A stretch of 64,000 nucleotides of DNA from Candidatus Melainabacteria bacterium RIFCSPHIGHO2_02_FULL_34_12 (GCA_001784555.1 MFRM01000006.1:34244-98243); one strand, 5' to 3'. Positions 25,558 to 57,031 are shown, counted from the stretch's first letter. Program-made: numbers and translations. The notes: a model not told the origin generated them from the letters alone.

Positions 25558-25575
25558 TTCTCTTCTCCTAATTTT

Positions 25576-27554: not shown

Positions 27555-27646
27555 AATAATTTTTATCTCTTAAGGTTTATTTTGAAACCATTATAATATT
27601 TTCATATATAATGGGCTTGTAGTTCCATGAAATTAATTGACGTTTT

Positions 27647-29490: not shown

Positions 29491-29491
29491 A

Positions 29492-41156: not shown

Positions 41157-43085
41157 TTATTTATCCTCTTCAAATATTATTTCTGCATATCCTGGATTTA
41201 CACCTTCGGGAGGTACTGGATGTCCCCAACGATCTACTACAACAGGTTCCGAAAATGTAAGAACCATTTTATCTGTTTTAATAGGACTAAATTTTGCATG
41301 TTGAATTCTTTTTAAATATGTATCTGGGAATGAGAAATTCATTTCTGCTGAAAGATTTCCGTTTAAATAAAATTGTACGTTTAACTTTTCCCAGGATTCG
41401 AATAGTTTTGTTTGCCTGGATAATAACCATATTGACTTTATGACAGAAAGTTCTTTTGGAATTGCCTCAATTGTTATTGATCTGTTTCCTGGTATTATCC
41501 AATTTGAGTATACGTCATTATCATTTGCAGCTTCTAATTCTGAATTAATTGAAACCAGGTCATTATACTTTAGTGTAATAGGTATGCTGATTATATTTAC
41601 TACTATGTTCTTCCAGTCTGTTTCTTTTTCGAGAAAGATATTTGAAATAGGTTTAAAAAGATCCTTAAACATAAAATAATCTATTCTGTTTCTTGTTCTT
41701 AGTTCAGAGATTCCCAAAGCACTCCAGATTATTAAACTTACAACTGCTAAAATTATTGCTATTTTGTCTAAGATTATTTTTGTCTTATTTGTAAAATCAA
41801 ATTTTAAACAGAGGTAATACCATAAAATTATTACTATAAGTAAGAGAAAAGTAATTATTTCTGAACTGTATCGCATGCATGTGGCAGGTATAAGAAATAC
41901 AAACATAGAATTAATTATTAATGAAAGAAAAATTAATTTAAATTCAAACTTAGGGAAAGTAATGTTATTTGAAGAAATCACTGACTTTTGAATTAGTTTT
42001 GTAAATAAATAAAAGAGAGGGATAAATATAAACGGAACAGTTGATAGTATTCCTACCACTGGTTCTTTGTTAAAAAAACCAGTAACTTTTGCCAGAATCG
42101 GATACATAATAAATGGTCCATCATTATGAATATATGGAAAAACTGAATTAACTGCCGGCGGATTAAACAAATAATAAAATGGAGTAATAAAAAGATTAGC
42201 AATATCAAATTGGCGTTCTTTAGCAAAGTTATAAAGCCCTACCTGATAGGTAAAACCAAACTCAAAGATATTTCCAAATCGCAGATAGTTATATAGTCCA
42301 ATTAATGAAGCACAGACAAAAAATGGCAAAATTAATGCAAGCCCTGCATTAAATCTGGTTTTTGAGTCAATATTTTTCTTAATTTTATTCCATACTAAAA
42401 GAAATAAAACAGACATAACTAAAATTGTGGGTCGTGCTCCTGCTGCAAGACCCATAAATAGACTTCCTAACAAAAGTCTGGTTATACGATTTTTTTCTTC
42501 ATGGGCAGCCTTTATAAATAAATAAATCGAACCCATTAAAAAAAACAGTCCGCATAAAATTGCTACATTATATAAACCATTGTCTTCACGGACCATAAAT
42601 GGACCCCAGTTTGCAATTCCAAGTACTGCAACTGACAGAAAGATTTTCCAGTTTTCAATTTTCTGAAAATAGGTCCTTTGAATAAATAAAAGTATGGCAA
42701 CTGCCCAAGCAAATACACCAAACATAAATAGTACGCTTGCCAGCCTGTCTGTCATAGTAAGTCCTGTAAGTAACTTAAAAGGCAGATAAAGAAGAATTAC
42801 TGGTGTAATGCCAAAATATAGGTAATATTTTCCTTTATAAAGCGATGCATCATGCCAGCGGTAATGCATATTTGTCCATGGATCATATGGATCAGCTAAT
42901 TCAAGAAGTTTTGGATCAGGCTCTTTCGATAAATGAAGTTTTCCTGCAAGAAATGCGTCAGTCAGATGATTGTAAGAAATATAGCCACCTGCCCCGCCAT
43001 GATCCATATGAAAGTTAAATGCATCGCTTCCAGCAAGCCACAAATAAAACACAAGGACAATCATCATTATGTGACTAATTCTCAT
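41157..43085 (-). CDS. Polytopic membrane protein (GT-C-like) with a C-terminal discoidin-like domain; paralog 3
   Basis: MDHGGAGGYISYNHLTDAFLAGKLHLSKEPDPKLLELADPYDP...YKGKYYLYFGITPV matches the N-terminal loop of paralog 2. About 10 TM helices. C-terminal VYSNWIIPGNRSITIEAIP...IKSIWLLSRQ domain. Confidence 0.5.
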   Translation of the reverse strand: MRISHIMMIVLVFYLWLAGSDAFNFHMDHGGAGGYISYNHLTDAFLAGKLHLSKEPDPKLLELADPYDPWTNMHYRWHDASLYKGKYYLYFGITPVILLYLPFKLLTGLTMTDRLASVLFMFGVFAWAVAILLFIQRTYFQKIENWKIFLSVAVLGIANWGPFMVREDNGLYNVAILCGLFFLMGSIYLFIKAAHEEKNRITRLLLGSLFMGLAAGARPTILVMSVLFLLVWNKIKKNIDSKTRFNAGLALILPFFVCASLIGLYNYLRFGNIFEFGFTYQVGLYNFAKERQFDIANLFITPFYYLFNPPAVNSVFPYIHNDGPFIMYPILAKVTGFFNKEPVVGILSTVPFIFIPLFYLFTKLIQKSVISSNNITFPKFEFKLIFLSLIINSMFVFLIPATCMRYSSEIITFLLLIVIILWYYLCLKFDFTNKTKIILDKIAIILAVVSLIIWSALGISELRTRNRIDYFMFKDLFKPISNIFLEKETDWKNIVVNIISIPITLKYNDLVSINSELEAANDNDVYSNWIIPGNRSITIEAIPKELSVIKSIWLLSRQTKLFESWEKLNVQFYLNGNLSAEMNFSFPDTYLKRIQHAKFSPIKTDKMVLTFSEPVVVDRWGHPVPPEGVNPGYAEIIFEEDK

Positions 43086-43142: not shown

Positions 43143-44849
43143 TTAATTTGTCCTGAGTTTAATGTGGTGATTTCCACGAGGAACTTCAAATCCAATAAAT
43201 CCTTTATCTGTAAGATATAAGTCTTTTGATTTTTTACCGTCAATATACAGCTCCCATGAGGGGTATAAATATTGTTTAACAATAAGAAAAGTCGGATTTT
43301 CAAGAGCTAAATCATAAAGAAAAGTATTTCCTTTTCTGTGATGTGAGAGGATTTCAGTACCTGGCTTCAGGTTCAGAATAAAATTGTTTGAATATTTTTC
43401 ATTTGTTCCAACCTCGTTTGCATAATTAAAATTAAATAAAATTGGTTCTGTTGTTTTAAGAAGTACACTCTGCGGACTGTGGCTGTTAGGAACCGTATAT
43501 TTTTCCCGGTAAAGCTGATTAAGCCATGATTCAGCATTGTAATTATTATGAACCATATCTTCGCCTGCAGAATGTAAGAATTTTGCACCGCTATAAAAAT
43601 GTAAAATAATAATAAGTATTAAAAACGGGATTTTTACCTTAAATTCATTAACAAGCAAAGCCATGATTATTGAACATAAAAAAGAATATACTAGAAATAA
43701 TCTCCATGAAAATTGAAGTCCATAAAGAATAGGCGGAAGATGCTGCCAGGCAGTTTTGCTTAAGAGGAGAATTATTGTTATTGATAAAGTACAAATTAAA
43801 AAAACAGCAAGGTTATTAAGCTGTATTTTTCGTTTTGCAATGAAAAGAAAAAGTAAAATTGCAATTGAAATAAGAAAAAGCTGACCTGCCTGCCATCTCT
43901 CTCCCGAATTACTCAGATCTAAAAACGCATAACACCAGCTTATATGCTCAAGCACTGTATTTAAATCTACCCGGTCAAATCCTCTGATATCACCGTTTAA
44001 GTGTTTTAGAGCATTATTTGCAGGAATTACATAAATAAGTGAAGCTGTTATGCCAATTACATTTGCAATAAACCAGTAGATGAGAGTGCTTTTATTTTCC
44101 TTTAAAAAAGTTTTTAAACTTCTTTTGATAAGTAAATAAACAAAGAAACCTAGGTGAATAAGCATAATAAAGAAAAAAGAAGGCATAAGATGGCTAATAA
44201 ATAAAACAGGAGTAAATAAAGCAATTAATATCCAGCCGTTTTTTTCTTTTAGAAAGAAAAGTTTATAAAACCCAAGAAAATAAAAAGGCATCCATGTAAA
44301 TATCCATAATTCTGAATATGCGTTTCTGGAATAAAGATCAATAAATCTGTAAGGAGAAAATAAATAAATAATTGCTCCAAATAAACTAATCAGATTTTTA
44401 GATTCTGAAGCATGGAAAATCTTTCTAAGAAGAAAGAACATCCCGACTTCTGAAATAATAAATGAAAGAAAAACGGCAACTTTCATGCCTGAAAAAACAT
44501 AATAATGATTATCAAAAAGAGAAGCTAAAGCTGAAGTAAAATAAATTACTATAAATGATAAAGGCTGATAAAAAGCCCAGTGGGGATTACCTTTTAATCC
44601 GGCATTGTCTGCTTGCCATATTATTGGCAGATGAAAATCTTCTCTTAAGGTTTTCACAACTTCTAATGCATTAAAAACAGTACCCATTGAATCATGTCCG
44701 CTAGGCCAGGTTTCATATTCAAAAAGCGGGATTAAAACATAATACGGTGCAATAATCAATACCAAGAGAATAATCCCGTATTGTTTTACAAGTTCAAAAA
44801 ATTTAGTTTTTGTGGAAGTAAACAAATTTTTACTATCTTTTAAGATCAT
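43143..44849 (-). CDS. YfhO-family polytopic membrane protein (putative GT-C glycosyltransferase), copy 1
   Basis: More than 10 TM helices. The C-terminal soluble tail ends ...YLYPSWELYIDGKKSKDLYLTDKGFIGFEVPRGNHHIKLRT, the YfhO-type Y-x-PGW-x-x-x-V-DG-K ... VP-x-G-x-H pattern. Confidence 0.5.
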   Translation of the reverse strand: MILKDSKNLFTSTKTKFFELVKQYGIILLVLIIAPYYVLIPLFEYETWPSGHDSMGTVFNALEVVKTLREDFHLPIIWQADNAGLKGNPHWAFYQPLSFIVIYFTSALASLFDNHYYVFSGMKVAVFLSFIISEVGMFFLLRKIFHASESKNLISLFGAIIYLFSPYRFIDLYSRNAYSELWIFTWMPFYFLGFYKLFFLKEKNGWILIALFTPVLFISHLMPSFFFIMLIHLGFFVYLLIKRSLKTFLKENKSTLIYWFIANVIGITASLIYVIPANNALKHLNGDIRGFDRVDLNTVLEHISWCYAFLDLSNSGERWQAGQLFLISIAILLFLFIAKRKIQLNNLAVFLICTLSITIILLLSKTAWQHLPPILYGLQFSWRLFLVYSFLCSIIMALLVNEFKVKIPFLILIIILHFYSGAKFLHSAGEDMVHNNYNAESWLNQLYREKYTVPNSHSPQSVLLKTTEPILFNFNYANEVGTNEKYSNNFILNLKPGTEILSHHRKGNTFLYDLALENPTFLIVKQYLYPSWELYIDGKKSKDLYLTDKGFIGFEVPRGNHHIKLRTN

Positions 44850-47800
44850 ACTCCTATGAAACTTGCAGGCGTGAAGTTTTTGTATTTTGAGAGGTTAATT
44901 TTTTTAGTGCCTCTGTTTTCAAATGAAATCTCAAGTTCATTTGTATCAAAATGATATATTGCTATGTCTGCTTTCCCGTCTCCATTATAGTCAGCTGGCA
45001 TTGGAATATCTCCTGCTTTGCCAAGAGTAAATGAATAATGGCTGGTGCCGCTTTTGGCAGGAACAAAGTCTTTAGCGTATGCAATATCCCATTTTCCGTT
45101 TTCGGGTGTCCACGTGGCAAGATCTACTTTCCCGTCTCCGTCATAATCTGCTGGGACTACTCTTGAAGTAAGGCTTCCAACAGTAACTAATATTTTAGTA
45201 GGGGTATTTGAACCACCGCATGCGCTGCCTCCAGTAGGTTTTTCTCCTAGACATGAAGAAAGATATAAATTAAATTCACCAAGATTCGGTTTAAAAATTA
45301 TGTAATCAGCTTTTTTATCTCCATCAATATCAGAATAAAGAACTGTATCTGCAACTGATGTATCAAAAGTATTTGTGTAGTAGTTCTCTGTAGTTGATTT
45401 ATATGTAGGCCATCTTCTGTCAAATGAGTTATAACAAGAAGTATCAGTTTTGCCGTCACCATCTACATCTGCCGGCAAAGGCATTTCACTCCATTCGCCG
45501 CACCATGTTCCATAGTAAGACTGAGAACCCTGTGATTTAAGAATATACCAGGTGGAGTTTGATTTATTAAACAATGCAATATCGGATTTAGAATCCCCAT
45601 CATAGTCTGCTGGTACAGGAACTAAAAGCTCTGAGCTGTTCAAGCCTGAGAGAAGTACTTTGTTTAAATCAATTTCTTTTTCGCTTTGATCTTTTCCATA
45701 TATAATGTGCCAGACTCTTCTAGCTTGATCATAAAAACCTATATCTGCTATTTTGTCACCATCAAAATCGTTTGACCTTGTGCTGTATGAGCCAAGATAA
45801 GGACAATCTGCAATTTCTTTTATGTAAGCAGGTGTTCTGTTATCATTTGATTCTAAAAGTTGACCTAGAAGTTGTTCGAAATTTGCCCCCGGGACTTGGG
45901 AAAGTGTTTTTGGCTCTACCTCATATAATTCTTTTAGATTTAATGGGTCATCGTTTTTGTTATTACTTAAACCAAGTTTTACCCCTTTATTTAAATAAGC
46001 ATTTAAAAGAATTTTTCTTGTCTGTGGAGAAAGAACCGATCTAAACATTCTTGGTGTCATATAAAGCCAGTTAATTTTTTTGCTCACCCATATTTTAGGA
46101 TCAAGTAAAAAAGCAGCTTTAAAATTTTCAGATGATTTATCAAGCAATTCTTTTTTTATTGAAGTATCTGTAATATTTGCAGACGGAATGATGTGGCTTA
46201 AACCGGTATTGTTAATAAAAACATCTACATATTGAGGTTCAGTAAGTATGGTTTCATTTTTTACATTTTTGTTTTTAAGATACTTTGTAAAAGCTATCTC
46301 TTCATCGTTTCCACCAGAAGCAATATCTACTGAAGCAGGTATTTGCTGAAGTCCGGAAAACTTCAATAATTTATGTTCGACAAAAAATAAAGGTTTATTT
46401 TTATCACCGAATATAAAGAACATCATCGTACATATACTGAGGGCTATCATAATAACTGCATAAAATGCAGTTAATTTTATTTCTTTAAGCTTAAATTGAT
46501 TTTCAGCAAAGTTTAAAGCAAAAGGCAAGGAAAATGCGCCAATTATATTGGCAGAAATAAACACCTTTCCTGCACCAGCTTCCGGAATGGAGACTAAATA
46601 AGGTATTGCAAGTGCACTGATGAAAAATGGCAATATAAAAAGTCCCCATGAGTGTTTTAATTTATATGCCTGAAAGAAGCCAAATGCATAAATGAGTAAA
46701 AGAATAAAATTACTTTCAAGAGGACTGTGTTTAAAATCAATATTTGTTTGACCAAGTTTATAAAGCTGTACAAAAGGTACCAGGTTTTTATCAAATCTTA
46801 CTGCATTTCCAAATAACACCCCAAGTACAATGGCTGTTAGTGCCATTATCCCAAGATTTCTTAAAAGAATTTTTTCATTTTCAATTTTATGCCATTCTCC
46901 GGGCAGTGCATAAGACAAAAGCAAATGAATAAATATTCCAAGAAAAAGAATTACAAGCTTTGAAACATCAATTATTACCAGGCTGCTAAGAAATACTCCA
47001 ACTAAAAGAGCAAATTTTATATTTTGTTCTTTGGTAAAAAGTTTATATGTCAGATATACACCTAATAAAAAGAAAAAACATCCTATTCCAAATGAAGGCT
47101 CAAAAAACCAGTGCAATACAAGTCCGGACCATTCTGCAGATGCAATTAGTTTATTTTGTGTTAAGTAATAAACTTTATCCAGCAAATTAATAGGAAGTTT
47201 TTCTCCCTGTTCTTTTATAAAGAAGGTGGTTATTGGTGCCCATGCTAAAAATGCCCCAAACGGAACCAGATAGCGGTTGATTTTTTTTGCAGAAAGAAAC
47301 TGTGATGATAGAATATAAAGAAGAAGAAAAATAAGATTTAAAAAGAGGATAGTGAGCACATCAAAGGAAATTTCCGGATGACTTCCCGAGATTTTTGATA
47401 ATGTACCGGCAAGTATATCTGCTCCGTAATGATATCTAAGGTTCAAGCCGGGAATTGAAAGATATTTAAGCGGATAAATATCATTTAATAGCTGATTTAC
47501 ATTAAATACATGCGTATTCCCAGACCCAAATTTATTAAGTTTAATTGTAGAAATTGCAGATGTAATATAAATTAAATTTATTGAGCCAAGCAATATCCAA
47601 AAATAAATATCAGTGTTTTGTTTGATTGAAGCAGCAATATTTTTACAATCATTACTAAGGCTGCTTAGTAATTGTTTTATTTCTTTAAATTGCCAGGAAA
47701 TTACAGCCAGAATAGTTATGCCAGAAACAATTAAGCTCATTAAAAAACTTTTTGAAATTGTACCTGCAATGTTTAGAATTATTAAAAAAGAAGAAATGCC

Positions 47801-47947
47801 CAGCCCCGTATTGATAAGAAATGAGAGCAATTTATTTTCTTCACTTATCTTTAGTTCTTTTTTAATTATGTGGCCAATTAAAGAGAACAGGGAAATTAAA
47901 ACAAAACTAAAAAGCAGGCATAAAAGTATTGTAAAGTTGAATTGCAT
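44846..47947 (-). CDS. Fusion protein: N-terminal roughly 560-aa polytopic membrane domain plus C-terminal FG-GAP/VCBS-type repeat (beta-propeller-like) domain
   Basis: The C-terminal roughly 330 aa contains at least 6 repeats of x-D-[YVI]-[DN]-GD-[GSK]-K-x-D, followed by an aromatic residue and a turn (FDGDKIADIGFY, ADYDGDSKSDIALF, ADVDGDGKTDTSCY, SDIDGDKKADYIIF, ADYDGDGKVDLATW, ADYNGDGKADIAIY). The N-terminal half is strongly hydrophobic. Confidence 0.55.
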   Translation of the reverse strand: MQFNFTILLCLLFSFVLISLFSLIGHIIKKELKISEENKLLSFLINTGLGISSFLIILNIAGTISKSFLMSLIVSGITILAVISWQFKEIKQLLSSLSNDCKNIAASIKQNTDIYFWILLGSINLIYITSAISTIKLNKFGSGNTHVFNVNQLLNDIYPLKYLSIPGLNLRYHYGADILAGTLSKISGSHPEISFDVLTILFLNLIFLLLYILSSQFLSAKKINRYLVPFGAFLAWAPITTFFIKEQGEKLPINLLDKVYYLTQNKLIASAEWSGLVLHWFFEPSFGIGCFFFLLGVYLTYKLFTKEQNIKFALLVGVFLSSLVIIDVSKLVILFLGIFIHLLLSYALPGEWHKIENEKILLRNLGIMALTAIVLGVLFGNAVRFDKNLVPFVQLYKLGQTNIDFKHSPLESNFILLLIYAFGFFQAYKLKHSWGLFILPFFISALAIPYLVSIPEAGAGKVFISANIIGAFSLPFALNFAENQFKLKEIKLTAFYAVIMIALSICTMMFFIFGDKNKPLFFVEHKLLKFSGLQQIPASVDIASGGNDEEIAFTKYLKNKNVKNETILTEPQYVDVFINNTGLSHIIPSANITDTSIKKELLDKSSENFKAAFLLDPKIWVSKKINWLYMTPRMFRSVLSPQTRKILLNAYLNKGVKLGLSNNKNDDPLNLKELYEVEPKTLSQVPGANFEQLLGQLLESNDNRTPAYIKEIADCPYLGSYSTRSNDFDGDKIADIGFYDQARRVWHIIYGKDQSEKEIDLNKVLLSGLNSSELLVPVPADYDGDSKSDIALFNKSNSTWYILKSQGSQSYYGTWCGEWSEMPLPADVDGDGKTDTSCYNSFDRRWPTYKSTTENYYTNTFDTSVADTVLYSDIDGDKKADYIIFKPNLGEFNLYLSSCLGEKPTGGSACGGSNTPTKILVTVGSLTSRVVPADYDGDGKVDLATWTPENGKWDIAYAKDFVPAKSGTSHYSFTLGKAGDIPMPADYNGDGKADIAIYHFDTNELEISFENRGTKKINLSKYKNFTPASFIGV

Positions 47948-48007
47948 AAACGATCCTCCTGGGTTTATGACGGATAGAATAAAAATTTTAGCCGTCTTTC
48001 AGTGAAT

Positions 48008-48172
48008 TATTATTGCGCCCGAGCGAAAAACTCGGGAGCTTGCTCCCGGAGATGTGAGCGAGTAGCAACAAAACGCCTCCTTACTAACGCCTCCTGATGC
48101 CCATGGCTCAAATCGGCGAAAAACTCTGTGAGCTTGCTCCAGAGATAGTCGATTTGAAGGGAGGCGTTTTAT
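48008..48172. repeat. GC-rich repeat/palindrome island in the divergent promoter region. It contains hairpins cccgag-cgaaaaa-ctcggg and gggagcttgctccc, a direct repeat GCGAAAAACTC(g/t)G(g/t)GAGCTTGCTCC x2 (48023-48046 and 48117-48140), and a long-range inverted repeat caaaacgcctcc (48069-80) / ggaggcgtttt (48159-70).
   Basis: Read from the sequence. It begins with tATTGCGccc, reminiscent of the ATTGCGAGG element termini. It overlaps the spurious track ORF 47999..48187. Confidence 0.5.
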
Positions 48173-48263
48173 AAAGTTTAATAACAAAGCTAGTTATATA
48201 CTTAGAAAGCTTTTTTATTTTAAGTCTGTAGGTTTTGAAACTATTTACTAGGGTTAATACAAG

Positions 48264-49775
48264 ATGCATCTGGAACAAATGAGAAAAAAATTATTATTTT
48301 TATTGCTGTTTAATTTAATTTTTTTTGAAGCAGGTTGCACTTTAAGCAACAATTTTTTTAATGCCAAGAAAAAGGCAAATAAGATAAATAATCTTTTAGA
48401 TATAAACAGTGACGGCAAATCTGATTTAATATTCTGGAATTGCCATAGTTTTGAAAAAGATTTAAATGAAAGTAATGAAAAGGGATATTTTGAAACCACT
48501 GAGTTAGAAAATACAAATTATCAGAAAATAAAATCAGGAAATCCAGGAGACATTCCTGTATTTGGGGATTTTAACGGAGATGGAGCAAGTGACTACGGCC
48601 TTTTTCAAAATGTGGATGGTGTAAACAGATGGTACTTAATTGATGGATTATCAAAAACAACATTTCAGGAAAGATATGGTTTTGTTACCGACATACCTGT
48701 GCCAAATGATTATGACGGTGACGGCAAATGTGATTTAGTAGTTTATAGACCTCATAACAACGGTTTTTACGGTACTTTGTCAGAAAAAAACAAGTTACTT
48801 GAAATCCACCTTGGGATTGCTGGCGACATACCTGTGCCAAAAGATTACGATGGCGATGGAATTGCTGATCTTGCAACATACAGGATAAACAGTGGAAGCT
48901 GGCTAATAAGAGAATCTAAAAATGACCTCCCGAAAATTTTAATGTTAGGTGGTAGAAAATATTTTCCTGTTCCTGCTGATTATGACGGTGACGGAAAAGC
49001 AGATTTAGCTGTGTGGAATCCTGGAAATAATGATTGTAAAATAGCTTTTTCTTCTTTTAGTCAGAAATTAAGTAATGAAACTGCAAAAAACATCAGAGAA
49101 AAGCTTAATGGAATGAAATTATTTCCTGCTTCTTCAGACTTTGATGGAGATGGAAAAAGTGAGCTTGCATTTTGGGAATATAAGACAAATATATTTCATG
49201 TATTCAAATTTAAAAACAATGACTTTGACTATAAACGCTATGAGCTGGCTATAAGTAAAAATACAACCCCAATCAATTATTTTTTATTAAAAAGATACAT
49301 TCAAATAAAAAATCGAAAAATTAATACGACAAATCTTCTGGAAATATACAAATCACAAAGTAAAACAAATGAATTCATTTGTGATGTAGACGGAGATTTT
49401 ATAAATGATAAAGGGAAATATGATGCTTCTGCAAAAACAATTGTCTTTAAAGAATCATCATCAAATACTGAAAAAAAACTGCCAGTGCCTTCTGCTGCTG
49501 GTAAATTTGCAGCTGGTGATTTCGACGGAGACGGTATGTGTGATGCAGCTTTTGCGGATATTGAGAGCAGAAAGCTTGTATATTTTTCAAATGGTTTTAA
49601 AACTTTAACTTCAATTGATCTTGATAAAAAGGCAAATGGAATACCATTTTCAGCTGATATTGATTTGGATTTTATGTCTGATCCTTTATTTTATAATCCA
49701 GACACTAAAATATTTGGATTTCAGCTTTCAAGTGAAGGTTATAGATACGATGAGGTAGAGGGAAGAGGTCAATGA
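48264..49775 (+). CDS. Secreted/lipoprotein FG-GAP/VCBS-type repeat protein
   Basis: Signal peptide LLFLLLFNLIFFEAGC followed by at least 7 repeats (DINSDGKSDLIFW, GDFNGDGASDYGLF, NDYDGDGKCDLVVY, KDYDGDGIADLATY, ADYDGDGKADLAVW, SDFDGDGKSELAFW, GDFDGDGMCDAAF). Confidence 0.6.
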   Translation: MHLEQMRKKLLFLLLFNLIFFEAGCTLSNNFFNAKKKANKINNLLDINSDGKSDLIFWNCHSFEKDLNESNEKGYFETTELENTNYQKIKSGNPGDIPVFGDFNGDGASDYGLFQNVDGVNRWYLIDGLSKTTFQERYGFVTDIPVPNDYDGDGKCDLVVYRPHNNGFYGTLSEKNKLLEIHLGIAGDIPVPKDYDGDGIADLATYRINSGSWLIRESKNDLPKILMLGGRKYFPVPADYDGDGKADLAVWNPGNNDCKIAFSSFSQKLSNETAKNIREKLNGMKLFPASSDFDGDGKSELAFWEYKTNIFHVFKFKNNDFDYKRYELAISKNTTPINYFLLKRYIQIKNRKINTTNLLEIYKSQSKTNEFICDVDGDFINDKGKYDASAKTIVFKESSSNTEKKLPVPSAAGKFAAGDFDGDGMCDAAFADIESRKLVYFSNGFKTLTSIDLDKKANGIPFSADIDLDFMSDPLFYNPDTKIFGFQLSSEGYRYDEVEGRGQ

Positions 49776-50509
49776 CGATAACAATAACAATAATTATTCC
49801 TGCATATAATGAATCACAACGTATTTCAAGAACATTATTTGAAATTGATGCATATATTACTAAAACTTCCTCTCAAAATCAGATTAAAGTAATTACTGTA
49901 GATGATGGCAGCATTGATAATACTGAAAATGTTGTAAAGAACTGGATTAAAGACAGATGTATAAATAAACAATGCTTTGAGACAATAAGTTATTTACCGA
50001 ATCATGGCAAAGGATATGCAGTAAGAGAGGGCTTTTTAAAAGCAGAATCAGATGTGGTTTTATATACTGATGCAGATGGAGCATGTTCCATTAATGAGCT
50101 TGAAAAATTAATGCTTTGGCTGGATAGAGGTTTTGATATTACTTGTGGCTCGAGGATTTTAAAAGATGATATATCCGAGGTTAAAATGAGCTTTAAGCGA
50201 AGATTATCAGGATTAGTTTTCCATTCGATTTTAAAAGTTTTTGGACTTGCAAGTCTTAAAGATACCCAGTGTGGTTTTAAGGCTTTTAAAAAAGAAGTTT
50301 ATAAAAAGCTTGCAAATATGCAAAAGTGTTTTAATTATTCTTTTGATATTGAATATTTATTTCTTGCAATGAAAATGGGCTATAAAATAAAAGAAGTCCC
50401 GGTAAACTGGTATCATGTAGAAGGCTCAAAAGTTAGTCTTGTAAGAGATTCAATAAAGATGCTTATTGAAGTGCTAAAAATTAGATTTGTGTATAAGTAT
50501 AATGTTTAA
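49772..50509 (+). CDS. GT2 polyprenyl-phosphate sugar synthase (DPM1/CsbB-like)
   Basis: ITIIIPAYNESQRI...ITVDDGSIDNT GT-A N-terminus. 245 aa. Immediately upstream of a YfhO-family gene. Confidence 0.7.
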   Translation: MTITITIIIPAYNESQRISRTLFEIDAYITKTSSQNQIKVITVDDGSIDNTENVVKNWIKDRCINKQCFETISYLPNHGKGYAVREGFLKAESDVVLYTDADGACSINELEKLMLWLDRGFDITCGSRILKDDISEVKMSFKRRLSGLVFHSILKVFGLASLKDTQCGFKAFKKEVYKKLANMQKCFNYSFDIEYLFLAMKMGYKIKEVPVNWYHVEGSKVSLVRDSIKMLIEVLKIRFVYKYNV

Positions 50510-50526
50510 AATAAAGGATTTATTAC

Positions 50527-52368
50527 ATGTCTGATTCATCACATCCAACTCAAGAAACTAAAACATATCATTTTCTCGGGACCAGAACCGAGAGGGTAGT
50601 ATTTTTAATTTTATTGACAATGATATCGGCAGGTCCCATTATTTTCGGGAAAAGTATACCCAGCCACGCTGACTGGCATATTCATATTGAGCATGCTTAC
50701 AATTTTAAAAAATGTTTCTGGCAGGAACAGTGGTTACCCAGATGGCTTGATGCACAGGTAAACGGTTATGGATTGCCTATTTTTAATTATTATGCTCCTC
50801 TTGTCTACTATCTTTTTGGTTTCCTGGAATTAATTTTTAGAAATCCAGTTTTATCAATTAAATGGACATTTGTAATTCCAATGATCCTCTGCACTATTTT
50901 TGGTTATTTATATCTCAGAAAACACGGCTCTGCACTTGCTTCAGCAATTGCAATGAGCCTTATTATTTTTTCACCTGCCATTCATATATTTATTTACAAC
51001 ACCAATTGGCCTACCAGTACCTTAGCTTTAGCTTTTTTGTTTATTGTATTATATGCAATTGATGGTTTTAACAGAAATAAGGAATTTGATTTAAAATCAT
51101 TCCTTTTATTATCCATAGGTTATGCAGCCATGGCTATCACTCACCTTGCCACTGCGTTTCTTTTTACTTTAATGGCTGTTCCTTATTTTATATTAAGCTT
51201 AAATATTTACAGAACAAAAAGATTTGTAAAATTCTTTTTTTCAAGCATGTTAATGGGAGGCTGTCTTGCTGGCTTTTATTTATTTCCTGCATGCCTTGAA
51301 AAAAACCTTGTGCATACTGATGAAGTCCTCACACAGGCACCGCTTTGGGATTATTCAAAAAACTTTCTTTTTACTTATTTAGACAGACACAGAGATGACG
51401 GATATGCCTGGGCTATTTTTGATCACAGATATTATGAAGTTAGCAATGCTTTGTTTGGTTTGATTGTAATGGCATTTATGATGGTGCTTCTTTTCAATGT
51501 GGATAGAATAAAACAGTATTTTGATGAACCGTTTCGCATTACCTCAGCTATAACAATGTTTTCAATTTCTTTTTTAATGATGACTCCGGTCTCTATATTT
51601 GTCTGGATAATGATTAAACCTATGCAGACTATCCAGTTTCCATGGAGATTTACTTCTTTTGTATTGCCTTTTGGAACTATTATTGTTGTCTATGCGCTGG
51701 ATTTAATCGGTAAATTAATGAAAGAAAAAGTTTCTATTGGCGGATATAAGTTTTTGTTTTATTGTTTAGCGCTTGTTTTTTCTCTTTTGGTTTATGTCGA
51801 TGTAGTAAACATGTACAGGTGGAAGTGGGTTCCAGAACAAAGTTTACTTAAAGCTGCAATATATGTTTTATGGGGCAATGAAGAATACAGACCGAATATT
51901 ACAGGTGATCCGAACTGGAAACAAATAAATTTTAAAAGTGATTTCAGTCCGTCAATTGCTTCTTCAAATCCTGCTGCTGATATTGCCCCAATAAAATGGC
52001 TGTCACATGAAAGAATATTTCAGGTGTTTTCTCCTGAGCAACATCAAATCAGACTCAGAACTTTTTATTTTCCAGGATGGAATGTTTATGTTGACGGAAA
52101 CAAAGTTGATTTAAGCATGGATCCTAAATATGGTTCTATAGTGGTTCAGGTCCCGGCAGGAAAACATAAACTTGTCGCGAAGTTTGAACTGACCCCTCTT
52201 AGAAAATCATCAGCATATGTCAGCCTTGCAGCTCTTCTAATCTATGCTGTTATGTTATTAAATTTGTTTAAGGAAAAAAATTTGAAATCTGAAAATAAAA
52301 CTAAAAATTCTGATGAAGAAAAAGAATCCATAAATGAAAATAAAACTGTGGAGGCTGGAGTAAATTGA
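50527..52368 (+). CDS. YfhO-family polytopic membrane protein (putative GT-C glycosyltransferase), copy 2
   Basis: More than 10 TM helices. C-terminal FYFPGWNVYVDGNKVDLSMDPKYGSIVVQVPAGKHKLVAKFELTP, the YfhO-type terminal beta-sandwich pattern. Confidence 0.5.
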   Translation: MSDSSHPTQETKTYHFLGTRTERVVFLILLTMISAGPIIFGKSIPSHADWHIHIEHAYNFKKCFWQEQWLPRWLDAQVNGYGLPIFNYYAPLVYYLFGFLELIFRNPVLSIKWTFVIPMILCTIFGYLYLRKHGSALASAIAMSLIIFSPAIHIFIYNTNWPTSTLALAFLFIVLYAIDGFNRNKEFDLKSFLLLSIGYAAMAITHLATAFLFTLMAVPYFILSLNIYRTKRFVKFFFSSMLMGGCLAGFYLFPACLEKNLVHTDEVLTQAPLWDYSKNFLFTYLDRHRDDGYAWAIFDHRYYEVSNALFGLIVMAFMMVLLFNVDRIKQYFDEPFRITSAITMFSISFLMMTPVSIFVWIMIKPMQTIQFPWRFTSFVLPFGTIIVVYALDLIGKLMKEKVSIGGYKFLFYCLALVFSLLVYVDVVNMYRWKWVPEQSLLKAAIYVLWGNEEYRPNITGDPNWKQINFKSDFSPSIASSNPAADIAPIKWLSHERIFQVFSPEQHQIRLRTFYFPGWNVYVDGNKVDLSMDPKYGSIVVQVPAGKHKLVAKFELTPLRKSSAYVSLAALLIYAVMLLNLFKEKNLKSENKTKNSDEEKESINENKTVEAGVN

Positions 52369-53342
52369 AAAGCATATTTGTATTAAGTCTTTTATTACTT
52401 ACACTTCCTGTATGGGTACCTGATTTCAGGAAGGATAAAATGACAGTATTTGCATCACTTTCATATTATAAATGTGATTTTGATGCTGATAAAAAAGAGG
52501 ACCTTGCACTATGGCATCCTAAAACAAATACACTGTATTTTCAGCTAACCTCCGATGGTAAATTTTATGAAAAGAAATTCTTTGATGCCGAATTAAATTA
52601 TTCTCCTGTTTTTGCTGATTATGATGGTGATGGCAAAACAGATTTTGCTTTTTATCAGGTCGAAAGCGGACAGTGGATTTTTTATCTTTCAAAAGAAGGT
52701 CTCCAAAAAACTTTTCTTGGCGGGATAAGTGATATTCCTATTCCTACAGATATAAATGGAGATATGATATATAGTCTTTCAATATGGAGACCGAATGCAG
52801 GTTTATGGGTTTTAACAGAAAAAACAAAATCAATTCAAAGTGATGATTCAGAACCTGAAATAATACCTGAAGGTAACTTTCAGGACTCTGCGTTTTCAGG
52901 AGATTATGACGGAGACGGTAAATCTGATTTAATTGTATGGAGACCAGATGATGGATACTGGCATGTAGTTAGATCAAGGACAGGATTTGATTTTGAACAA
53001 AGTGATCACATACAGCATGGAAAAGAATGGGATATCATTGTTCCAAATGACTATGATAATGATGGAAGATGTGATCTTGTATTTTGGAGACCAAGTGAGC
53101 AAACCTGGTACTTTTTATATGCAGGTTCTCAAAATCAAAATCAGATAAAATTTGGAGAAAAAAACGATATTCCTTTATCTGCTGATCTTGATTCTGACGG
53201 TAGTCCTGAGCTGATTACCTGGAATGCAGTAAAAAAATCCTGGAATATATTAAATCTAAAAAAACATGAATCTAATTCTTATAAATGGGATGTGCCTGAA
53301 GGATGTATTCCAGCTGTTTCAATAATACAGAAATATGAATAA
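52365..53342 (+). CDS. Secreted FG-GAP/VCBS-type repeat protein
   Basis: N-terminal hydrophobic signal, then repeats (ADYDGDGKTDFAFY, GDYDGDGKSDLIVW, NDYDNDGRCDLVFW, ADLDSDGSPELITW). Confidence 0.55.
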   Translation: MKSIFVLSLLLLTLPVWVPDFRKDKMTVFASLSYYKCDFDADKKEDLALWHPKTNTLYFQLTSDGKFYEKKFFDAELNYSPVFADYDGDGKTDFAFYQVESGQWIFYLSKEGLQKTFLGGISDIPIPTDINGDMIYSLSIWRPNAGLWVLTEKTKSIQSDDSEPEIIPEGNFQDSAFSGDYDGDGKSDLIVWRPDDGYWHVVRSRTGFDFEQSDHIQHGKEWDIIVPNDYDNDGRCDLVFWRPSEQTWYFLYAGSQNQNQIKFGEKNDIPLSADLDSDGSPELITWNAVKKSWNILNLKKHESNSYKWDVPEGCIPAVSIIQKYE

Positions 53343-55287
53343 ATTACCGTTTTTCCTTTTGTTATTAAGCTTATTATTATGCGGTTGTTCCAATGCTCCG
53401 GATTTTATATCTTTTTCTACTTTAGCAAACAAAAAAATCAATAACTTGGTAGACATTGACGGAGACAGAAAATCAGATCTTATTTTCTGGAATACCACTT
53501 CAATGTCAAGCTCTGACACGTTTCTAGAGGCTTGTTTTTTTGAAATAATTGATTCAGCCAAAGACAAATATTCTAAACATAAAATTGGTGAGATTTCAGA
53601 TATTCCTTTTTCTGGTTATTTTAATGATGATCAAATTGTAGATATTGGGGTTTATAGAACCTATCCTGAGGGAGAAAGTGAGTGGTTTATAAAAAGCGGC
53701 AATAGCGAAGATCACTACAATATAAAACTTGGAAGTGCTGGTGATATTCCTATTCCTTCAGACTATGATGGTGATGGAAAAACAGATATAGTTATATTTA
53801 AACCCACAGTAAAATCTTTTCAGGGAATATTAACCAGCTCTAATGTTCCATTTAAACTAGACTTTAAAGTAGATGGAGATATTCCAGTTACTAAAGATTA
53901 TGACGGCGATGGTGTTTGTGATTTTGCTATATACAATTCAAAAAACGGCAATTGGTTTGTCAAACCATCAGGCAAACGTGATCTTATAAATATTCAGCTT
54001 GGCGGTCCTTATTTCCTTCCTATTCCTTCAGATTATGATGGAGATGGTAAATGTGATTATTGTGCATGGAATTATAATACCGGGGAAATAAAACTTCTGC
54101 TTTCTACTCTAAGTCGTCCGGTTTCAAATGAACTTGCAGAAAAAGTAAGAAAAGCTCTTAAAGGAAAAAATATTATTCCTGTACCGCTTGACTATGATGG
54201 TGACGGAAGGGCTGAACTTGCTTTCTGGGACAGCTCAGTTAAGTCCATTATAAGTTTTGATGTAAATAATGATTTCAGAAAAAAAACAAAGCGCCTAGGA
54301 AAAATCTCAAATTCCCTCCCCATTACGAATTTTTTACTTAACAGGTTTTATTTAAACGGATGGACTGTAAAAAGCCCGGTCATTGTAAATAAAGAAGAAA
54401 TAAAGTTTTTAATTTTAAATAAAGACAAAATCACTTCAATTCAAAAACCAGTTGAATCATTAACAAAACACTTACCCTCTAAATCAGTTAATTTATTCAA
54501 TTTAAATAAAAAAGATAATATTGTTCCATTTGTTTCTGATTTTGACGGAGATTATTCTCTTGACTTTTGTCTCTGGTCTGTGGATACAGGAACATATCTG
54601 TGTAGATCAAGCAGATTAGGCGGGAATTTCGCGCTGCAATTAGGAGTATCATCTGATCTGCCTGCAGTTGGAAATTTTAATTTTGATAATATTTCTGATC
54701 TTGCAGTTTACCGTCAGTCATTAAGAATGTTTATTGTCCGTTATCTGGGGAAATCCATGCCAAAAGAAGAAGAATTAATTAAGCTTAGTGATGATGCAGG
54801 TATAAATTCTTTTCCAATTGCAGGTGATTTTGATGGTGATAAGATAGATGACTTTGCAGTTTTTAATCCGTCAAAAAACATTTTTATAGTGAAAAAATCA
54901 TCCTCCTCTAAAGAAATTAAATATGAAATTTGTTCTCAGAAGAACTGTACAAATAGTCTGATTCCTTTAAGCGGTGATTTTGACGGAGATTTAACAGATG
55001 ATCCGGCAGGTGTAAATATACAGGATAAAAAGTTCATTTTCTATTCAAGCTTAAATGGTGTTTTGCAGGAAAATACTCTTAGTGCTGTAAATGGCAATGT
55101 AGCTTTTACAGCTGACCTGGACGGTGATTTAAAATCAGATATTTTCTTTTATGATCCAAATAACACTAATTTAGGAATCTGTCAGTCAAAGCAAAACTGG
55201 AAATACATGGAAATAAAGTTTACGGATGTTGCTGCCGGTAATTTAAAGAAGGTAAAATTAGTAAACTGTCCCAGATGCAATATCTGA
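53335..55287 (+). CDS. FG-GAP/VCBS-type repeat lipoprotein
   Basis: Lipoprotein-like signal LLLLSLLLCGCSNA. At least 9 repeats (DIDGDRKSDLIFW, SDYDGDGKTDIVIF, KDYDGDGVCDFAIY, SDYDGDGKCDYCAW, LDYDGDGRAELAFW, SDFDGDYSLDFCLW, GDFDGDKIDDFAVF, GDFDGDLTDDPAG, ADLDGDLKSDIFFY). Confidence 0.6.
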   Translation: MNKLPFFLLLLSLLLCGCSNAPDFISFSTLANKKINNLVDIDGDRKSDLIFWNTTSMSSSDTFLEACFFEIIDSAKDKYSKHKIGEISDIPFSGYFNDDQIVDIGVYRTYPEGESEWFIKSGNSEDHYNIKLGSAGDIPIPSDYDGDGKTDIVIFKPTVKSFQGILTSSNVPFKLDFKVDGDIPVTKDYDGDGVCDFAIYNSKNGNWFVKPSGKRDLINIQLGGPYFLPIPSDYDGDGKCDYCAWNYNTGEIKLLLSTLSRPVSNELAEKVRKALKGKNIIPVPLDYDGDGRAELAFWDSSVKSIISFDVNNDFRKKTKRLGKISNSLPITNFLLNRFYLNGWTVKSPVIVNKEEIKFLILNKDKITSIQKPVESLTKHLPSKSVNLFNLNKKDNIVPFVSDFDGDYSLDFCLWSVDTGTYLCRSSRLGGNFALQLGVSSDLPAVGNFNFDNISDLAVYRQSLRMFIVRYLGKSMPKEEELIKLSDDAGINSFPIAGDFDGDKIDDFAVFNPSKNIFIVKKSSSSKEIKYEICSQKNCTNSLIPLSGDFDGDLTDDPAGVNIQDKKFIFYSSLNGVLQENTLSAVNGNVAFTADLDGDLKSDIFFYDPNNTNLGICQSKQNWKYMEIKFTDVAAGNLKKVKLVNCPRCNI

Positions 55288-55308: not shown

Positions 55309-55656
55309 ATGAAAATGATAATTGTAATAATCAGGCCTAACCGGCTTTCTGCTGTAAAAGAAGCCCTTACTTCAAATGGTTTTACTGGAATTACTGTAAA
55401 TGCTGTAAAAGGATGTGGAAGCCAGAGAGGCACAGTTGAAAGGTATCGTGGAAGCCAGTATGTGGTGGATCTTCATGACAAACTTGAAATTAAAGTAGTT
55501 GTAAATGATGATTTGCTTGAAAAGGCCACTCAGATAATTATTGAAGCTGCAAAAACCGGAGAATTCGGGGACGGTAAGATATTTGTTTTAAACGTAGAGG
55601 AAGTAATTCGCATAAGAACAGGTGAAAAAGGACAAGCTGCACTGGAGACAAGGTGA
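55309..55656 (+). CDS. glnB: Nitrogen regulatory protein P-II
   Basis: P-II signature I RYRGSQYVVD (T-loop Tyr) and signature II TGEFGDGKIFVLNVEEVIRIRTGE. 115 aa. Confidence 0.85.
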   Translation: MKMIIVIIRPNRLSAVKEALTSNGFTGITVNAVKGCGSQRGTVERYRGSQYVVDLHDKLEIKVVVNDDLLEKATQIIIEAAKTGEFGDGKIFVLNVEEVIRIRTGEKGQAALETR

Positions 55657-55678
55657 GAATGACAGGATTAATCGATAA

Positions 55679-56986: not shown

Positions 56987-56994
56987 ATCTGTAG

Positions 56995-57026
56995 GGGCTT
57001 GCTGCAGCAAGCCCTTGATTGAAATT
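56995..57026 (+). terminator. Rho-independent terminator after amt: perfect 20-nt palindrome gggcttgctgcagcaagccc followed by ttgattgaaatt
   Basis: Read from the sequence. 9 bp after the amt stop codon. Confidence 0.55.
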
Positions 57027-57031
57027 ACATT

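Follow-up and report, generated by a model that had tools for sequence, protein, structure and literature searches.

Glycosyltransferases of the GT-C fold with acceptor-binding C-terminal carbohydrate-binding modules (CBMs) are documented, namely EmbC, AftD, and the GT136 enzyme ORF12 (PMC11127046). In Citrobacter youngae ORF12, mycobacterial EmbA/B/C, and AftD, the polytopic GT-C domain precedes a beta-rich domain outside the cytoplasm, to which the acceptor glycan binds, and these enzymes work with a polyprenyl-phosphate-sugar synthase (PMC11127046). In class-A GT-C enzymes, the variable C-terminal module binds the acceptor, and the first extracytoplasmic loop contains two helices, with the catalytic acidic base on the first helix (PMC13503287). 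A GT2 polyprenyl-phosphate-sugar synthase also stands beside a GT-C protein in the GtrA/GtrB/GtrC systems and in CsbB-GtcA-YfhO, which acts on lipoteichoic acid. Protein O-mannosylation (actinobacterial Ppm1 and Pmt; eukaryotic PMT1/2 and TMTC) and protein glucosylation by streptococcal GtrB/PgtC2 likewise depend on a soluble or peripheral GT2 for the lipid-linked sugar, and the GT-C proteins PMT and TMTC have an additional domain on the luminal or periplasmic side (MIR and TPR, respectively).

Here, we analyzed a 64,000-nt stretch of DNA (the window) from Candidatus Melainabacteria bacterium RIFCSPHIGHO2_02_FULL_34_12 (GCA_001784555.1 MFRM01000006.1:34244-98243), with positions counted from its first nucleotide. 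As in the systems above, a GT2 gene is found beside GT-C genes, and a GT-C domain is fused to an additional module; unlike the three-component systems, the region has an array of more than one GT-C and GT2 gene with beta-propeller partners. We put the probability at roughly 0.5 that these genes form the core of an array for periplasmic glycosylation that depends on a lipid carrier and in which the propellers serve as fused or separate acceptor-binding modules.

Organization of the gene cluster

The gene cluster lies at the end of a ~30-kb envelope-glycan locus in the genome of this uncultured cyanobacterial relative. The locus has sugar-nucleotide genes and four GT2 genes that resemble polyprenyl-phosphate-sugar synthases. 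All ORFs of the original prediction were recovered, including four FG-GAP/VCBS repeat genes interleaved with a GT2 gene and the genes for two polytopic membrane proteins. They belong to two operons separated by a divergent intergenic region (47948..48263). On inspection of the sequence, this region contained two copies of a GC-rich, hairpin-bearing motif of ~30 nt, with a hairpin at 48033-48048, and no further copy of the motif was found in the window.

On the minus strand, the gene for a 1033-aa fusion protein (44846..47947) is followed by that for a 568-aa polytopic membrane protein (43143..44849), whose start overlaps the stop of the fusion gene by 4 nt. The last gene of this operon, which lies beyond the coordinates of the original prediction, encodes a 642-aa GT-C-fold glycosyltransferase (41157..43085). 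On the plus strand, the operon encodes a 503-aa predicted lipoprotein (48264..49775), a 245-aa GT2 (49772..50509), a 613-aa GT-C membrane glycosyltransferase (50527..52368), a 325-aa propeller protein with a TTG start (52365..53342), and a 650-aa predicted lipoprotein (53335..55287). No unassigned small ORF was left over in the 27-58 kb region. No GtrA, MATE, or Wzx flippase domain was found among the ORFs scanned over 19.7-58 kb; in this, the locus differs from GtrA/GtrB/GtrC, with its GtrA-family flippase, and from the ORF12/Emb/AftD type.

Glycosyltransferases encoded beside the fusion protein

The 613-aa protein matched PF10131 (PTPS_related) with an E-value of 3.1e-12 and 46 bits (cut-off, 26.4). 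The 568-aa protein, to which it is 23% identical over the full length, is a PF10131-like GT-C protein with an E-value of 1.7e-5 and 24 bits, just below the cut-off, and it also matched DUF6541 at an E-value of 0.012. The two had been assigned to the YfhO family, but neither matched YfhO PF09586 at E <= 0.1, which sets them apart from the GT-C protein of CsbB-GtcA-YfhO. Some homologues at 22-27% identity match both PF10131 and PF09586, and both families are members of the GT-C clan (PMC7801869), so that the 613- and 568-aa proteins share their clan with YfhO. In the 613-aa protein, the sequence H-A-D-W-H (residues 47-51) follows the first predicted TM helix (24-42), and H47, A48, D49, W50, and H51 are all invariant.

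The 245-aa GT2 (PF00535, E 1.5e-24) is of the polyprenyl-phosphate-sugar synthase type (DPM1, ArnC, AglJ, PgfS-like). Its best NCBIfam matches were dolichyl-phosphate hexose transferase (3e-17), AglJ, ArnC, PgfS, and PpgS, all under the equivalog cut-offs. The catalytic domain is related to DPM1, ArnC, and GtrB, in line with the CsbB-like GT2 originally proposed, but no TM helix was predicted (no hydrophobic segment exceeded the threshold), whereas GtrB and CsbB have C-terminal TM helices. The proximity of this synthase-like GT2 suggests that the GT-C enzymes may use a polyprenyl-(pyro)phosphate-linked sugar donor.

The 642-aa protein carries a C-terminal CBM32 (F5/8 type C) module, for which a discoidin-type beta-sandwich fold was found, and it has exactly the ORF12/Emb/AftD layout. 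A distant homologue of this protein, P0318, is fused to a GtrA-like domain.

Conservation of the gene order and of the fusion

The gene order was compared among related Melainabacteria loci spanning fusion identities of 38-59%. The 613-aa GT-C gene was located beside the fusion gene in all nine loci, and the GT2 gene was adjacent in eight of the nine, with identities of 57-67%. The 325-aa propeller gene was present in 8/8 loci reaching far enough. According to the gene coordinates, the 613-aa gene runs 4 nt into the 325-aa gene in eight of nine loci. The 613-aa GT-C protein and the 325-aa propeller appear to represent the fused architecture as two separate chains. The 568-aa GT-C gene occurs exactly where the 503- and 650-aa lipoprotein genes occur: as a raw tally over nine complete loci of related genomes without phylogenetic correction, it is present in the five loci, including the window, that have them and absent from the four that do not. 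The original prediction had named incidental linkage as the outcome that comparison with relatives could reveal; these results support a non-incidental linkage between the repeat proteins and the GT2 and GT-C genes.

In a search among 1.84 billion proteins, all full-length representatives of the fusion family were ~1000-1045 aa in length, which indicates that the domains are always fused. Five weakly similar proteins of ~1000 aa with C-terminal FG-GAP repeats and an identical order of domains were also detected, with E-values of 1e-7 to 7e-4 over the N-terminal loop; one of them, from a Deltaproteobacteria MAG, is encoded in a glycan-gene context.

Propeller proteins

The four repeat proteins matched PF13517 (FG-GAP_3/VCBS) with E-values of 6e-20 to 9e-14 and 52-72 bits (Pfam gathering cut-off, 26.9); the values for the 325-, 503-, and 650-aa proteins were 6e-20, 5.8e-16, and 9.1e-14, respectively. 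The same proteins scored 40-52 bits with PF01839 (FG-GAP; gathering cut-off, 22.1). Judged by these profile scores, the FG-GAP/VCBS match is far above chance. The repeat period, taken from the spacing of the D-x-D-x-D-G...D loops in the four proteins, was 45-56 aa, longer than the 30-40 aa originally estimated.

The propeller of the fusion protein (residues 720-1033; 44849..45790, minus strand) has six repeats, with Ca-type loops at residues 727, 781, 827, 873, 934, and 986. By the D-x-D/N-x-D-G...D pattern, the other proteins have five loops plus a degenerate one (325 aa, six repeats), six plus two or three (503 aa), and ten (650 aa). The 503-aa protein contains one six-repeat propeller (loops at residues 46-292) and a partial C-terminal repeat region, and the 650-aa protein two propeller regions in tandem, with loops at residues 40-286 in one and 402-594 in the other. 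The 325-aa propeller is ~30% identical to that of the fusion (E 3e-22), and the 503- and 650-aa proteins are 33% identical to each other.

The propeller model superposed on the six-bladed lectin propeller of UmbA4 (Streptomyces coelicolor umbrella toxin particles, PDB 9oee) over 279 of ~315 residues at 2.8 A and on the seven-bladed PVL over 240 residues at 3.8 A. The families PF01839 and PF13517 and the Ca-loop signature are common to the present propellers and to the seven-bladed integrin alpha and PVL-type propellers; a seven-bladed integrin-alpha type was rejected because of the six repeats and the better superposition on UmbA4. PVL and AAL-2 are lectins. UmbA4 itself resembles the present propellers in fold, but it belongs to no biosynthetic enzyme; it is a secreted subunit for toxin targeting, with a trypsin-like domain and a bulb lectin fused to it.

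Signal or lipoprotein leaders had been predicted for three of the proteins. A lipobox is kept among orthologues of the 650-aa protein (L-C-G-C, F-V-G-C, L-S-G-C). In the 503-aa family, the hydrophobic N-terminus is followed by a kept Cys that is less canonical than a lipobox, and near the N-terminus of the 325-aa protein lies a short hydrophobic segment (anchor or signal) with no obvious cleavage site.

Membrane and middle domains of the fusion protein

The original prediction placed a membrane domain of unknown family at the C-terminus of the fusion protein. The order is the reverse: an N-terminal polytopic membrane domain (residues ~1-515; 46403..47947) is followed by a mixed alpha/beta domain (residues ~520-715; 45803..46390), which was assigned from the modeled secondary structure, and then by the propeller at the C-terminus. 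The fold assignments are from AlphaFold models built on shallow alignments of 20 and 23 sequences, and their confidence was good. In the model, the membrane domain is of the GT-C (class A) fold, with the N-terminal TM module common to the STT3, ArnT, PMT, and ALG enzymes, and PMT and STT3/PglB/AglB were among its best structural matches. No Pfam family matched the domain, PMT and PMT_2 included, and hhalign gave no sequence link to PF10131 or to the 642-aa families. The alpha/beta domain, which is presumed to be periplasmic, is kept in 20/20 full-length homologues.

The WWDYG-type motif (W-[WYF]-D-[YFW]-[GS]) was absent from the fusion and from every membrane protein of the locus; the fusion has the sequence NWLYMTP at residues 626-632, but its W is not conserved among homologues. 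Membership of the oligosaccharyltransferases (STT3/PglB/AglB) was rejected for the fusion on this motif.

The long loop of the fusion (residues 133-194) is predicted to contain two short helices, at 145-154 and 175-187. The fusion also has the strongest signature of the family (H146, Q152, Y158-P159, R-Y-H-Y-G175-x-D177, and D196). Of 16 distant relatives of the membrane domain, 14 have the pair DE at the opening of the long loop that follows the fourth helix, at the position where the catalytic base sits in class-A GT-C enzymes. PMT carries a DE motif in its loop, and the distant relatives resemble it in this respect. In the fusion of the window, the position reads N138-K139; across the Melainabacteria fusions it varies (D in 10/20, N in 6/20), and the pair is lost in 20/20, although the alignment of this variable segment may be off by a few residues. 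No conserved acidic residue was found in the first helix of the loop. At identities of 38-59%, the invariant polar residues of the membrane domain are H146, D177, E192, D196, D327, K330, N381, K431, and N467. The other fusion clade has T at the D177 position yet retains DE, so D177 could replace the lost acid.

Discussion

The reading that we favor takes lipid-linked-sugar glycosylation outside the cytoplasm as the general frame, which the results support. In the cytoplasm, small GT2 enzymes, represented here by the 245-aa protein, would move sugar from a nucleotide sugar to polyprenyl phosphate, and the lipid-linked sugar would be flipped over the inner membrane. The GT-C-fold enzymes (the fusion and the 613-, 568-, and 642-aa proteins) would then pass the sugar to an extracytoplasmic acceptor, most likely an envelope glycan. 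A periplasmic carbohydrate-binding module may serve each GT-C enzyme by holding or selecting the acceptor. It would be fused in two cases, as CBM32 on the 642-aa enzyme and as the six-bladed FG-GAP propeller on the 1033-aa enzyme. Free propellers may serve the others: the 613-aa enzyme would act with the anchored 325-aa protein, and the 568-aa enzyme with the two lipoproteins of 503 and 650 aa.

Overall, the propellers resemble lectin-type modules for acceptor binding more than they resemble substrates of glycosylation, adhesins, or S-layer proteins: the best structural match of the model is a lectin that binds glycopolymers, an enzyme carries one propeller in cis, and translational coupling links the genes for the 613-aa GT-C protein and the 325-aa propeller. 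The same reading is suggested by the propeller proteins themselves, in which a sequence scan found no Ser/Thr-rich disordered stretch and just one to nine N-x-S/T sites per protein. Since the neighboring 642-aa enzyme joins a GT-C domain to CBM32, the propeller fills the slot of a bona fide carbohydrate-binding module. The kept gene order, the 4-nt overlap, the shared occurrence of the 568-aa GT-C gene and the two lipoprotein genes, the constant fusion, and the synthase-like GT2 genes of the locus also favor the array. The conserved propeller residues are mostly structural Ca-type loops and Trp and are uninformative about the ligand. Also counting against the array are the missing GtrA-, MATE-, or Wzx-like flippase over 27-58 kb, the variable position of the catalytic base in the fusion, and the lack of an hhalign link between its membrane domain and the other GT-C families.

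The original prediction offered surface-protein glycosylation or an adhesion/S-layer-like module, and the first of these is the best of the other explanations, though an unlikely one. The GT2 would make a polyprenyl-phosphate sugar, the GT-C proteins would be protein O- or N-glycosyltransferases, and the secreted propellers would be their substrates, forming a glycosylated surface layer. Pairs of GT2 and GT-C enzymes do glycosylate proteins, as in GtrB/PgtC2 and the streptococcal Pgf system (PMC12041528). The GT2 genes of the locus score on the PgfS and AglJ models, the structural matches to PMT and STT3/PglB/AglB fit, and exported proteins are encoded in the same operons as the glycosyltransferases. 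However, one propeller belongs to the enzyme polypeptide itself, and its closest structural relative is a lectin; the co-encoded proteins offer no Ser/Thr-rich acceptor regions, unlike those of protein O-mannosylation, and few N-x-S/T sites; the WWDYG motif is missing; and the CBM32 of the neighboring GT-C points to a glycan acceptor.

Somewhat less probable still is that the fusion is a non-catalytic GT-C-like protein (for example, a scaffold, a receptor for lipid-linked sugar, or a sensor) that presents a lectin propeller, with catalysis left to the PF10131 and 642-aa enzymes. The loss of the DE pair and the lack of a conserved acid in the first loop helix speak for it. The invariant polar residues (H146, D177, E192, and others) fit a retained active or binding site, and the possible misalignment and the possible substitution by D177 both weaken the case from DE.

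We regard the adhesion or S-layer-like module as improbable. FG-GAP/VCBS repeats are common among bacterial surface and adhesion proteins, and two of the present proteins are probable lipoproteins, so that the propellers could be adhesins or structural proteins with glycosyltransferase genes as mere neighbors in an envelope locus. Against this, the GT-C fusion is kept in every full-length family member, the gene order and the 4-nt GT-C/propeller overlap are kept down to 38% identity, and a Pfam scan of the locus proteins detected no S-layer, cell-wall-anchoring, or autotransporter domains. It is very improbable that the propellers are glycan-processing lyases or esterases instead of binding modules, since, although propeller folds are found among polysaccharide lyases, the matches to a PL11 lyase (E 5.5), to virginiamycin B lyase (Foldseek 5.6e-4), and to the FusH esterase (NCBIfam, confined to its repeat region) are insignificant or due to the common repeat, the lectin propeller is by far the best match, and no catalytic motif was found.

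Under the acceptor-binding reading, the fusion differs from the ORF12/Emb/AftD type in that its module is a ~315-aa six-bladed Ca-loop propeller, not an Ig-like domain or CBM beta-sandwich, that an extra alpha/beta domain of ~200 aa precedes it, and that its membrane domain has no sequence similarity to these enzymes; some propellers are, moreover, separate polypeptides. In contrast to the CsbB-GtcA-YfhO setting, the bacterium is presumably diderm and devoid of teichoic acids. The original prediction named no described counterpart of the fusion. A GT-C enzyme with a C-terminal carbohydrate-binding domain has already been described, and what looks undescribed is just the use of a propeller as the added module. 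The array is probably a variant of the known decoration of the cell envelope outside the cytoplasm.

Gene calls and propeller proteins

The open reading frames of the original prediction were all present at exactly the positions given for them, in a window with a G+C content of about 33%. The proteins encoded at 44846..47947 (minus strand; the 1033-aa fusion) and at 48264..49775, 52365..53342, and 53335..55287 (plus strand; 503, 325, and 650 aa, respectively) all scored far above the thresholds of the Pfam FG-GAP_3/VCBS and FG-GAP models, which confirmed their FG-GAP/VCBS identity. The repeat unit was G-D-I-P-V-P-x-D-Y-D-G-D-G-K-x-D-[LI]-[AV]-[VF]-[WY] and, contrary to the predicted length of 30–40 aa, recurred every 45–56 residues. 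Six units were found in the fusion (residues 727 to 986), six, one of them degenerate, in the 325-aa protein, six plus a partial C-terminal set in the 503-aa protein, and two sets in the 650-aa protein. The 503-aa protein is a paralogue of the 650-aa protein (33% identity), and the 325-aa protein showed approximately 30% identity to the fusion propeller. A lipobox was kept across the 650-aa protein family and a Cys residue following a hydrophobic stretch across the 503-aa protein family, while the N-terminus of the 325-aa protein was short and hydrophobic without an obvious cleavage site.

The fusion was 100% identical to GenBank OGI20282.1, a 964-aa "hypothetical protein" from a Candidatus Melainabacteria MAG (RIFCSPHIGHO2_02_FULL), whose start is placed 69 codons too late. 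Nineteen homologues aligned from Met1 and indicated an upstream ATG at 47947, giving a protein of 1033 aa that gains the first two transmembrane (TM) helices.

A scan of genome contigs with the FG-GAP loop as the pattern yielded 541 confirmed propeller-only matches, mostly from Acidobacteriota, and one full-length fusion (locus L007). Stand-alone propellers with approximately 30–38% identity to the fusion propeller (L008–L086) were very common in Acidobacteriota MAGs (Pyrinomonadaceae, Blastocatellia).

Predicted fold of the fusion protein

The structure of the fusion was modeled by AlphaFold2 from an alignment of 20 sequences (pLDDT 82, pTM 0.76). The model consisted of a helical membrane domain (residues 2–513), a mixed alpha/beta part (520–715), and an all-beta part (720–1033). 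Fold matches of the membrane domain were GT-C enzymes only, with match figures of 19.9 for STT3B, 18.8 for ALG12, 18.6 for ArnT, 18.3 for Pmt4, 18.2 for AftA, 18.2 for AglB, 17.8 for PglB, 16.8 for Pmt2, 15.7 for PIG-M, 14.7 for AftB, and 14.5 for ALG9. Foldseek was in agreement: for the membrane part it returned AglB, PglB, DPY19, STT3, and AftA, and for the C-terminal part the lectins PVL, PAL, and AAL-2 along with ITFG2 and the propeller of TcdB. Sequence searches of Pfam, NCBIfam, and PDB sequences with the membrane domain gave no match, and hhalign comparisons of its profile with the PF10131-type and 642-aa-type families of the locus were not significant; the GT-C assignment of the fusion thus rests on fold comparison. 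The propeller likewise had no match in a single-sequence phmmer search against the PDB, and UmbA4 was reached by profile only. The UmbA4 propeller is a six-bladed lectin with conserved Ca-type loops in every blade, and it binds teichuronic acid in inter-blade pockets (PMC13274773). The membrane domain, originally described as of unknown family, is accordingly predicted to adopt the fold of a class-A-type GT-C glycosyltransferase, and a six-bladed lectin type is predicted for the propeller. As AglB, PglB, and STT3 were the top Foldseek matches, an oligosaccharyltransferase was considered and ruled out because the fusion has no WWDYG motif.

The fusion family and its loop signature

A search of 1.84 billion representative proteins with a profile built from the first 715 residues gave full-length representatives in only about 15 cases, every one of them 1001–1044 aa long and hence fused. 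About 90 weaker matches (E values of 1e-10 to 1e-3) were mostly 600–860 aa long, and those with a source name came from Pseudomonadota, Planctomycetota, and Nitrospirota MAGs; no Pfam family was found among those scanned. The weaker matches had in common the loop signature H146...Q152...[YF]158-P-P...[RK]-Y-H-Y-G175-x-D177...I-D196. Five of them were about 1000 aa long and also carried C-terminal FG-GAP repeats, indicating that the same domain order occurs well outside Melainabacteria, at very low similarity. One of the five, MCC6805851.1 from a Deltaproteobacteria MAG, lies in a locus with genes for a methyltransferase, YdjC, two GT2 enzymes, an FAD protein, and an epimerase. A distant second clade of proteins in which FG-GAP repeats come after a membrane domain is represented by locus L087 (Deltaproteobacteria MAG JADLHZ010000004.1), where positions 8001–10991 encode a 996-aa protein next to methyltransferase, YdjC, GT2, and FAD protein genes.

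The first luminal loop of class-A GT-C enzymes carries the catalytic base in its first helix (PMC13503287). The long loop opened with "DE" in 14 of 16 distant relatives, and this motif was kept in the L087 protein. At the corresponding position, the Melainabacteria fusions had D in 10 and N in 6 of 20 sequences, the protein of the window having N138-K139. D177 was invariant in the Melainabacteria fusions and replaced by T in the other fusion clade, including the L087 protein. A non-catalytic role of the fusion is possible.

Glycosyltransferases encoded next to the fusion

The 245-aa GT2 protein (49772..50509, plus strand) matched PF00535 with an E value of 1.5e-24. Its top-scoring models were dolichyl-phosphate hexose transferase, AglJ, ArnC, PgfS, and PpgS, all with scores under the equivalog cut-offs, and no TM helix was predicted. 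Since it scored best against polyprenyl-phosphate-sugar-type models and has no predicted TM helix, we read it as a putative enzyme, soluble or peripheral, of the polyprenyl-phosphate-sugar-synthase-like type.

The 613-aa (50527..52368, plus strand) and 568-aa (43143..44849, minus strand) proteins had been labeled as YfhO-family proteins. Pfam ruled out this membership, as both matched PF10131 "PTPS_related" instead. PF10131 is a member of the GT-C clan (PMC7801869), and distant homologues of the 613-aa protein often matched PF10131 plus YfhO or PMT_2; the label was therefore correct at the clan level and wrong at the family level. An H-A-D-W-H motif at residues 47–51 was invariant in the 613-aa family, in which the first TM helix is predicted at 24–42.

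The fusion gene is the first of a minus-strand operon, followed by the gene for the 568-aa enzyme, with a 4-nt overlap, and that for a 642-aa protein (41157..43085). The latter had no Pfam match, and its fold matched GT-C enzymes (ALG12, 19.2; PIG-M, 18.7; ArnT, 18.2; Pmt2, 16.8). Its layout was the same as that of EmbC, AftD, and GT136 ORF12, namely GT-C plus an acceptor-binding CBM (PMC11127046). One distant homologue was fused to a GtrA-like domain. Two further polytopic proteins of about 700 aa without a Pfam match are encoded on the plus strand at 34647–36746 and 37485–39581; the latter is a paralogue of the 642-aa protein, and the former has only the C-terminal region in common with its family. 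With these two products, the locus may hold six GT-C-type enzymes.

Conservation of the gene order

Nine related loci, in which the fusion was 38–59% identical to that of the window, were compared. The 613-aa GT-C gene adjoined the fusion gene in all nine, and the 245-aa GT2 gene was adjacent in eight, the exception being L006, where the contig is cut. The 325-aa propeller gene came next in 8/8 loci of sufficient extent, and its start overlapped the stop of the 613-aa gene by 4 nt in eight of nine loci, the window counted in. The genes for the 568-aa GT-C enzyme and the 503-aa and 650-aa lipoproteins were present together in the window, L001, L088, L089, and L004, and absent together from L090, L003/Uo87, L007, and L005. 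The original prediction had noted that the linkage would be incidental if relatives lacked the glycosyltransferase genes; as these genes were retained, the linkage is real.

Surrounding genes and other features of the window

The upstream region (23.3–41.2 kb) encodes a UDP-glucose dehydrogenase, two epimerases/dehydratases, two FAD proteins, a methyltransferase, and three further polyprenyl-phosphate-sugar-synthase-like GT2 proteins, together with GmhA-, GmhB-, HddA-, and HddC-like proteins, all of the latter under curated cut-offs. The set at 24817–30556 comprises genes for a transaldolase-like protein, a GmhB-like phosphatase, a GmhA-like SIS isomerase, a GT2 protein, an epimerase, an HddC-like nucleotidyltransferase, and an HddA-like GHMP kinase. 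This set looks like a GDP-heptose-type pathway, with all NCBIfam scores under the curated cut-offs. L088 and L089 likewise have the kinase, nucleotidyltransferase, and epimerase trio close to the fusion gene, and L004 has a GHMP kinase gene at its edge. No flippase gene was recognized among the scanned ORFs at 19.7–58 kb.

In the intergenic region 47948–48263, an otherwise AT-rich divergent promoter region, a GC-rich motif of about 30 nt, CGAAAAACTC-(2-3 nt)-GAGCTTGCTCC-[CA]GGAGAT, occurred twice at positions 48020–48150, each copy with a short hairpin. It was not found elsewhere in the window and could be a regulator site or a 5′-leader element. A promoter scan gave 67 sites against 76 expected and was uninformative in AT-rich DNA. 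No tRNA genes or Rfam families were found in the window. In L090, a probable toxin–antitoxin pair (8400–9919), consisting of an AbiEii-type toxin gene preceded by a small ORF, is inserted between the divergent fusion and GT2 operons.

Genes for P-II, an ammonium transporter, and an ornithine-cyclodeaminase-like protein (55309–58003, plus strand) begin 21 nt after the propeller operon. All three had the same location in L001, L007, L089, and the P0012 contig; three more related loci had only the ornithine-cyclodeaminase-like gene there. This probably reflects conserved synteny and not a shared function. An ORF of 1564 aa without a Pfam match follows at 58414–63108 (plus strand), and in L088, L090, and the P0012 contig, large unannotated ORFs of 1427–1525 aa or more adjoined the ornithine-cyclodeaminase-like gene in the corresponding position. 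An alpha-glucan metabolism cluster (5579–12874, minus strand; GH13 with CBM48, GH77, GH15-like, and GH57) is unrelated to the findings on the fusion locus.

Interpretation and significance

The simplest account of the locus, built largely on predicted folds, would be a polyprenyl-phosphate-sugar/GT-C array for extracytoplasmic glycosylation, in which every GT-C enzyme would be paired with a periplasmic carbohydrate-binding module. Two enzymes would carry the module in cis, the 642-aa protein a CBM32 and the fusion a lectin propeller; in trans, the 325-aa propeller would serve the 613-aa enzyme, and the lipoproteins would serve the 568-aa enzyme. It is also possible that the propeller proteins are substrates of protein glycosylation, for which the streptococcal GtrB/PgtC2 and Pgf systems provide a precedent (PMC12041528); however, they contain no disordered stretches rich in Ser/Thr and few N-x-S/T sites, and the occurrence of fused and split forms of one domain pair in the same locus argues most strongly for propellers that partner the enzymes instead of being their substrates.

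In its full form, the array reading is tentative, with a probability of about one in four. A Melainabacteria envelope glycan, which may contain heptose, would be built or remodeled largely outside the cytoplasm by the GT-C array, fed by several polyprenyl-phosphate-sugar synthases, as in mycobacterial arabinan assembly. The six-bladed FG-GAP lectin propellers would serve as interchangeable acceptor-selecting subunits, one as part of a protein that would be a founding member of a GT-C family not yet catalogued, and the rest acting on PF10131 enzymes in trans.

Neither acceptor-binding appendages on GT-C enzymes nor modification systems that combine GT2 and GT-C proteins are new. In the searchable literature, nothing relevant was found on GT-C enzymes with FG-GAP or propeller domains or on Melainabacteria envelope glycosylation, and no description of free lectin subunits for GT-C enzymes was found. 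Thus, three features appear to be undescribed there: the predicted six-bladed FG-GAP lectin-type propeller as a GT-C acceptor-binding appendage, the propeller as a separate, translationally coupled subunit, and the putative Pfam-less GT-C family that carries it.

These features extend a known scheme and do not overturn current ideas. If the array reading is true, the Ca-loop lectin propeller would be a third acceptor-binding appendage on GT-C enzymes, beside CBM and MIR/TPR domains, and the locus would suggest that these modules may also be provided as distinct subunits under translational coupling. A GT-C family with neither a Pfam model nor an annotation would be recognizable in several phyla by the loop signature H...Q...YPP...RYHYGxD...ID, and in annotation, the labels "VCBS repeat-containing protein" and "hypothetical protein" could give way to "GT-C glycosyltransferase with lectin-like propeller". 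The locus would also offer a first entry point to the biosynthesis of envelope glycans in the non-photosynthetic lineage that is sister to cyanobacteria.
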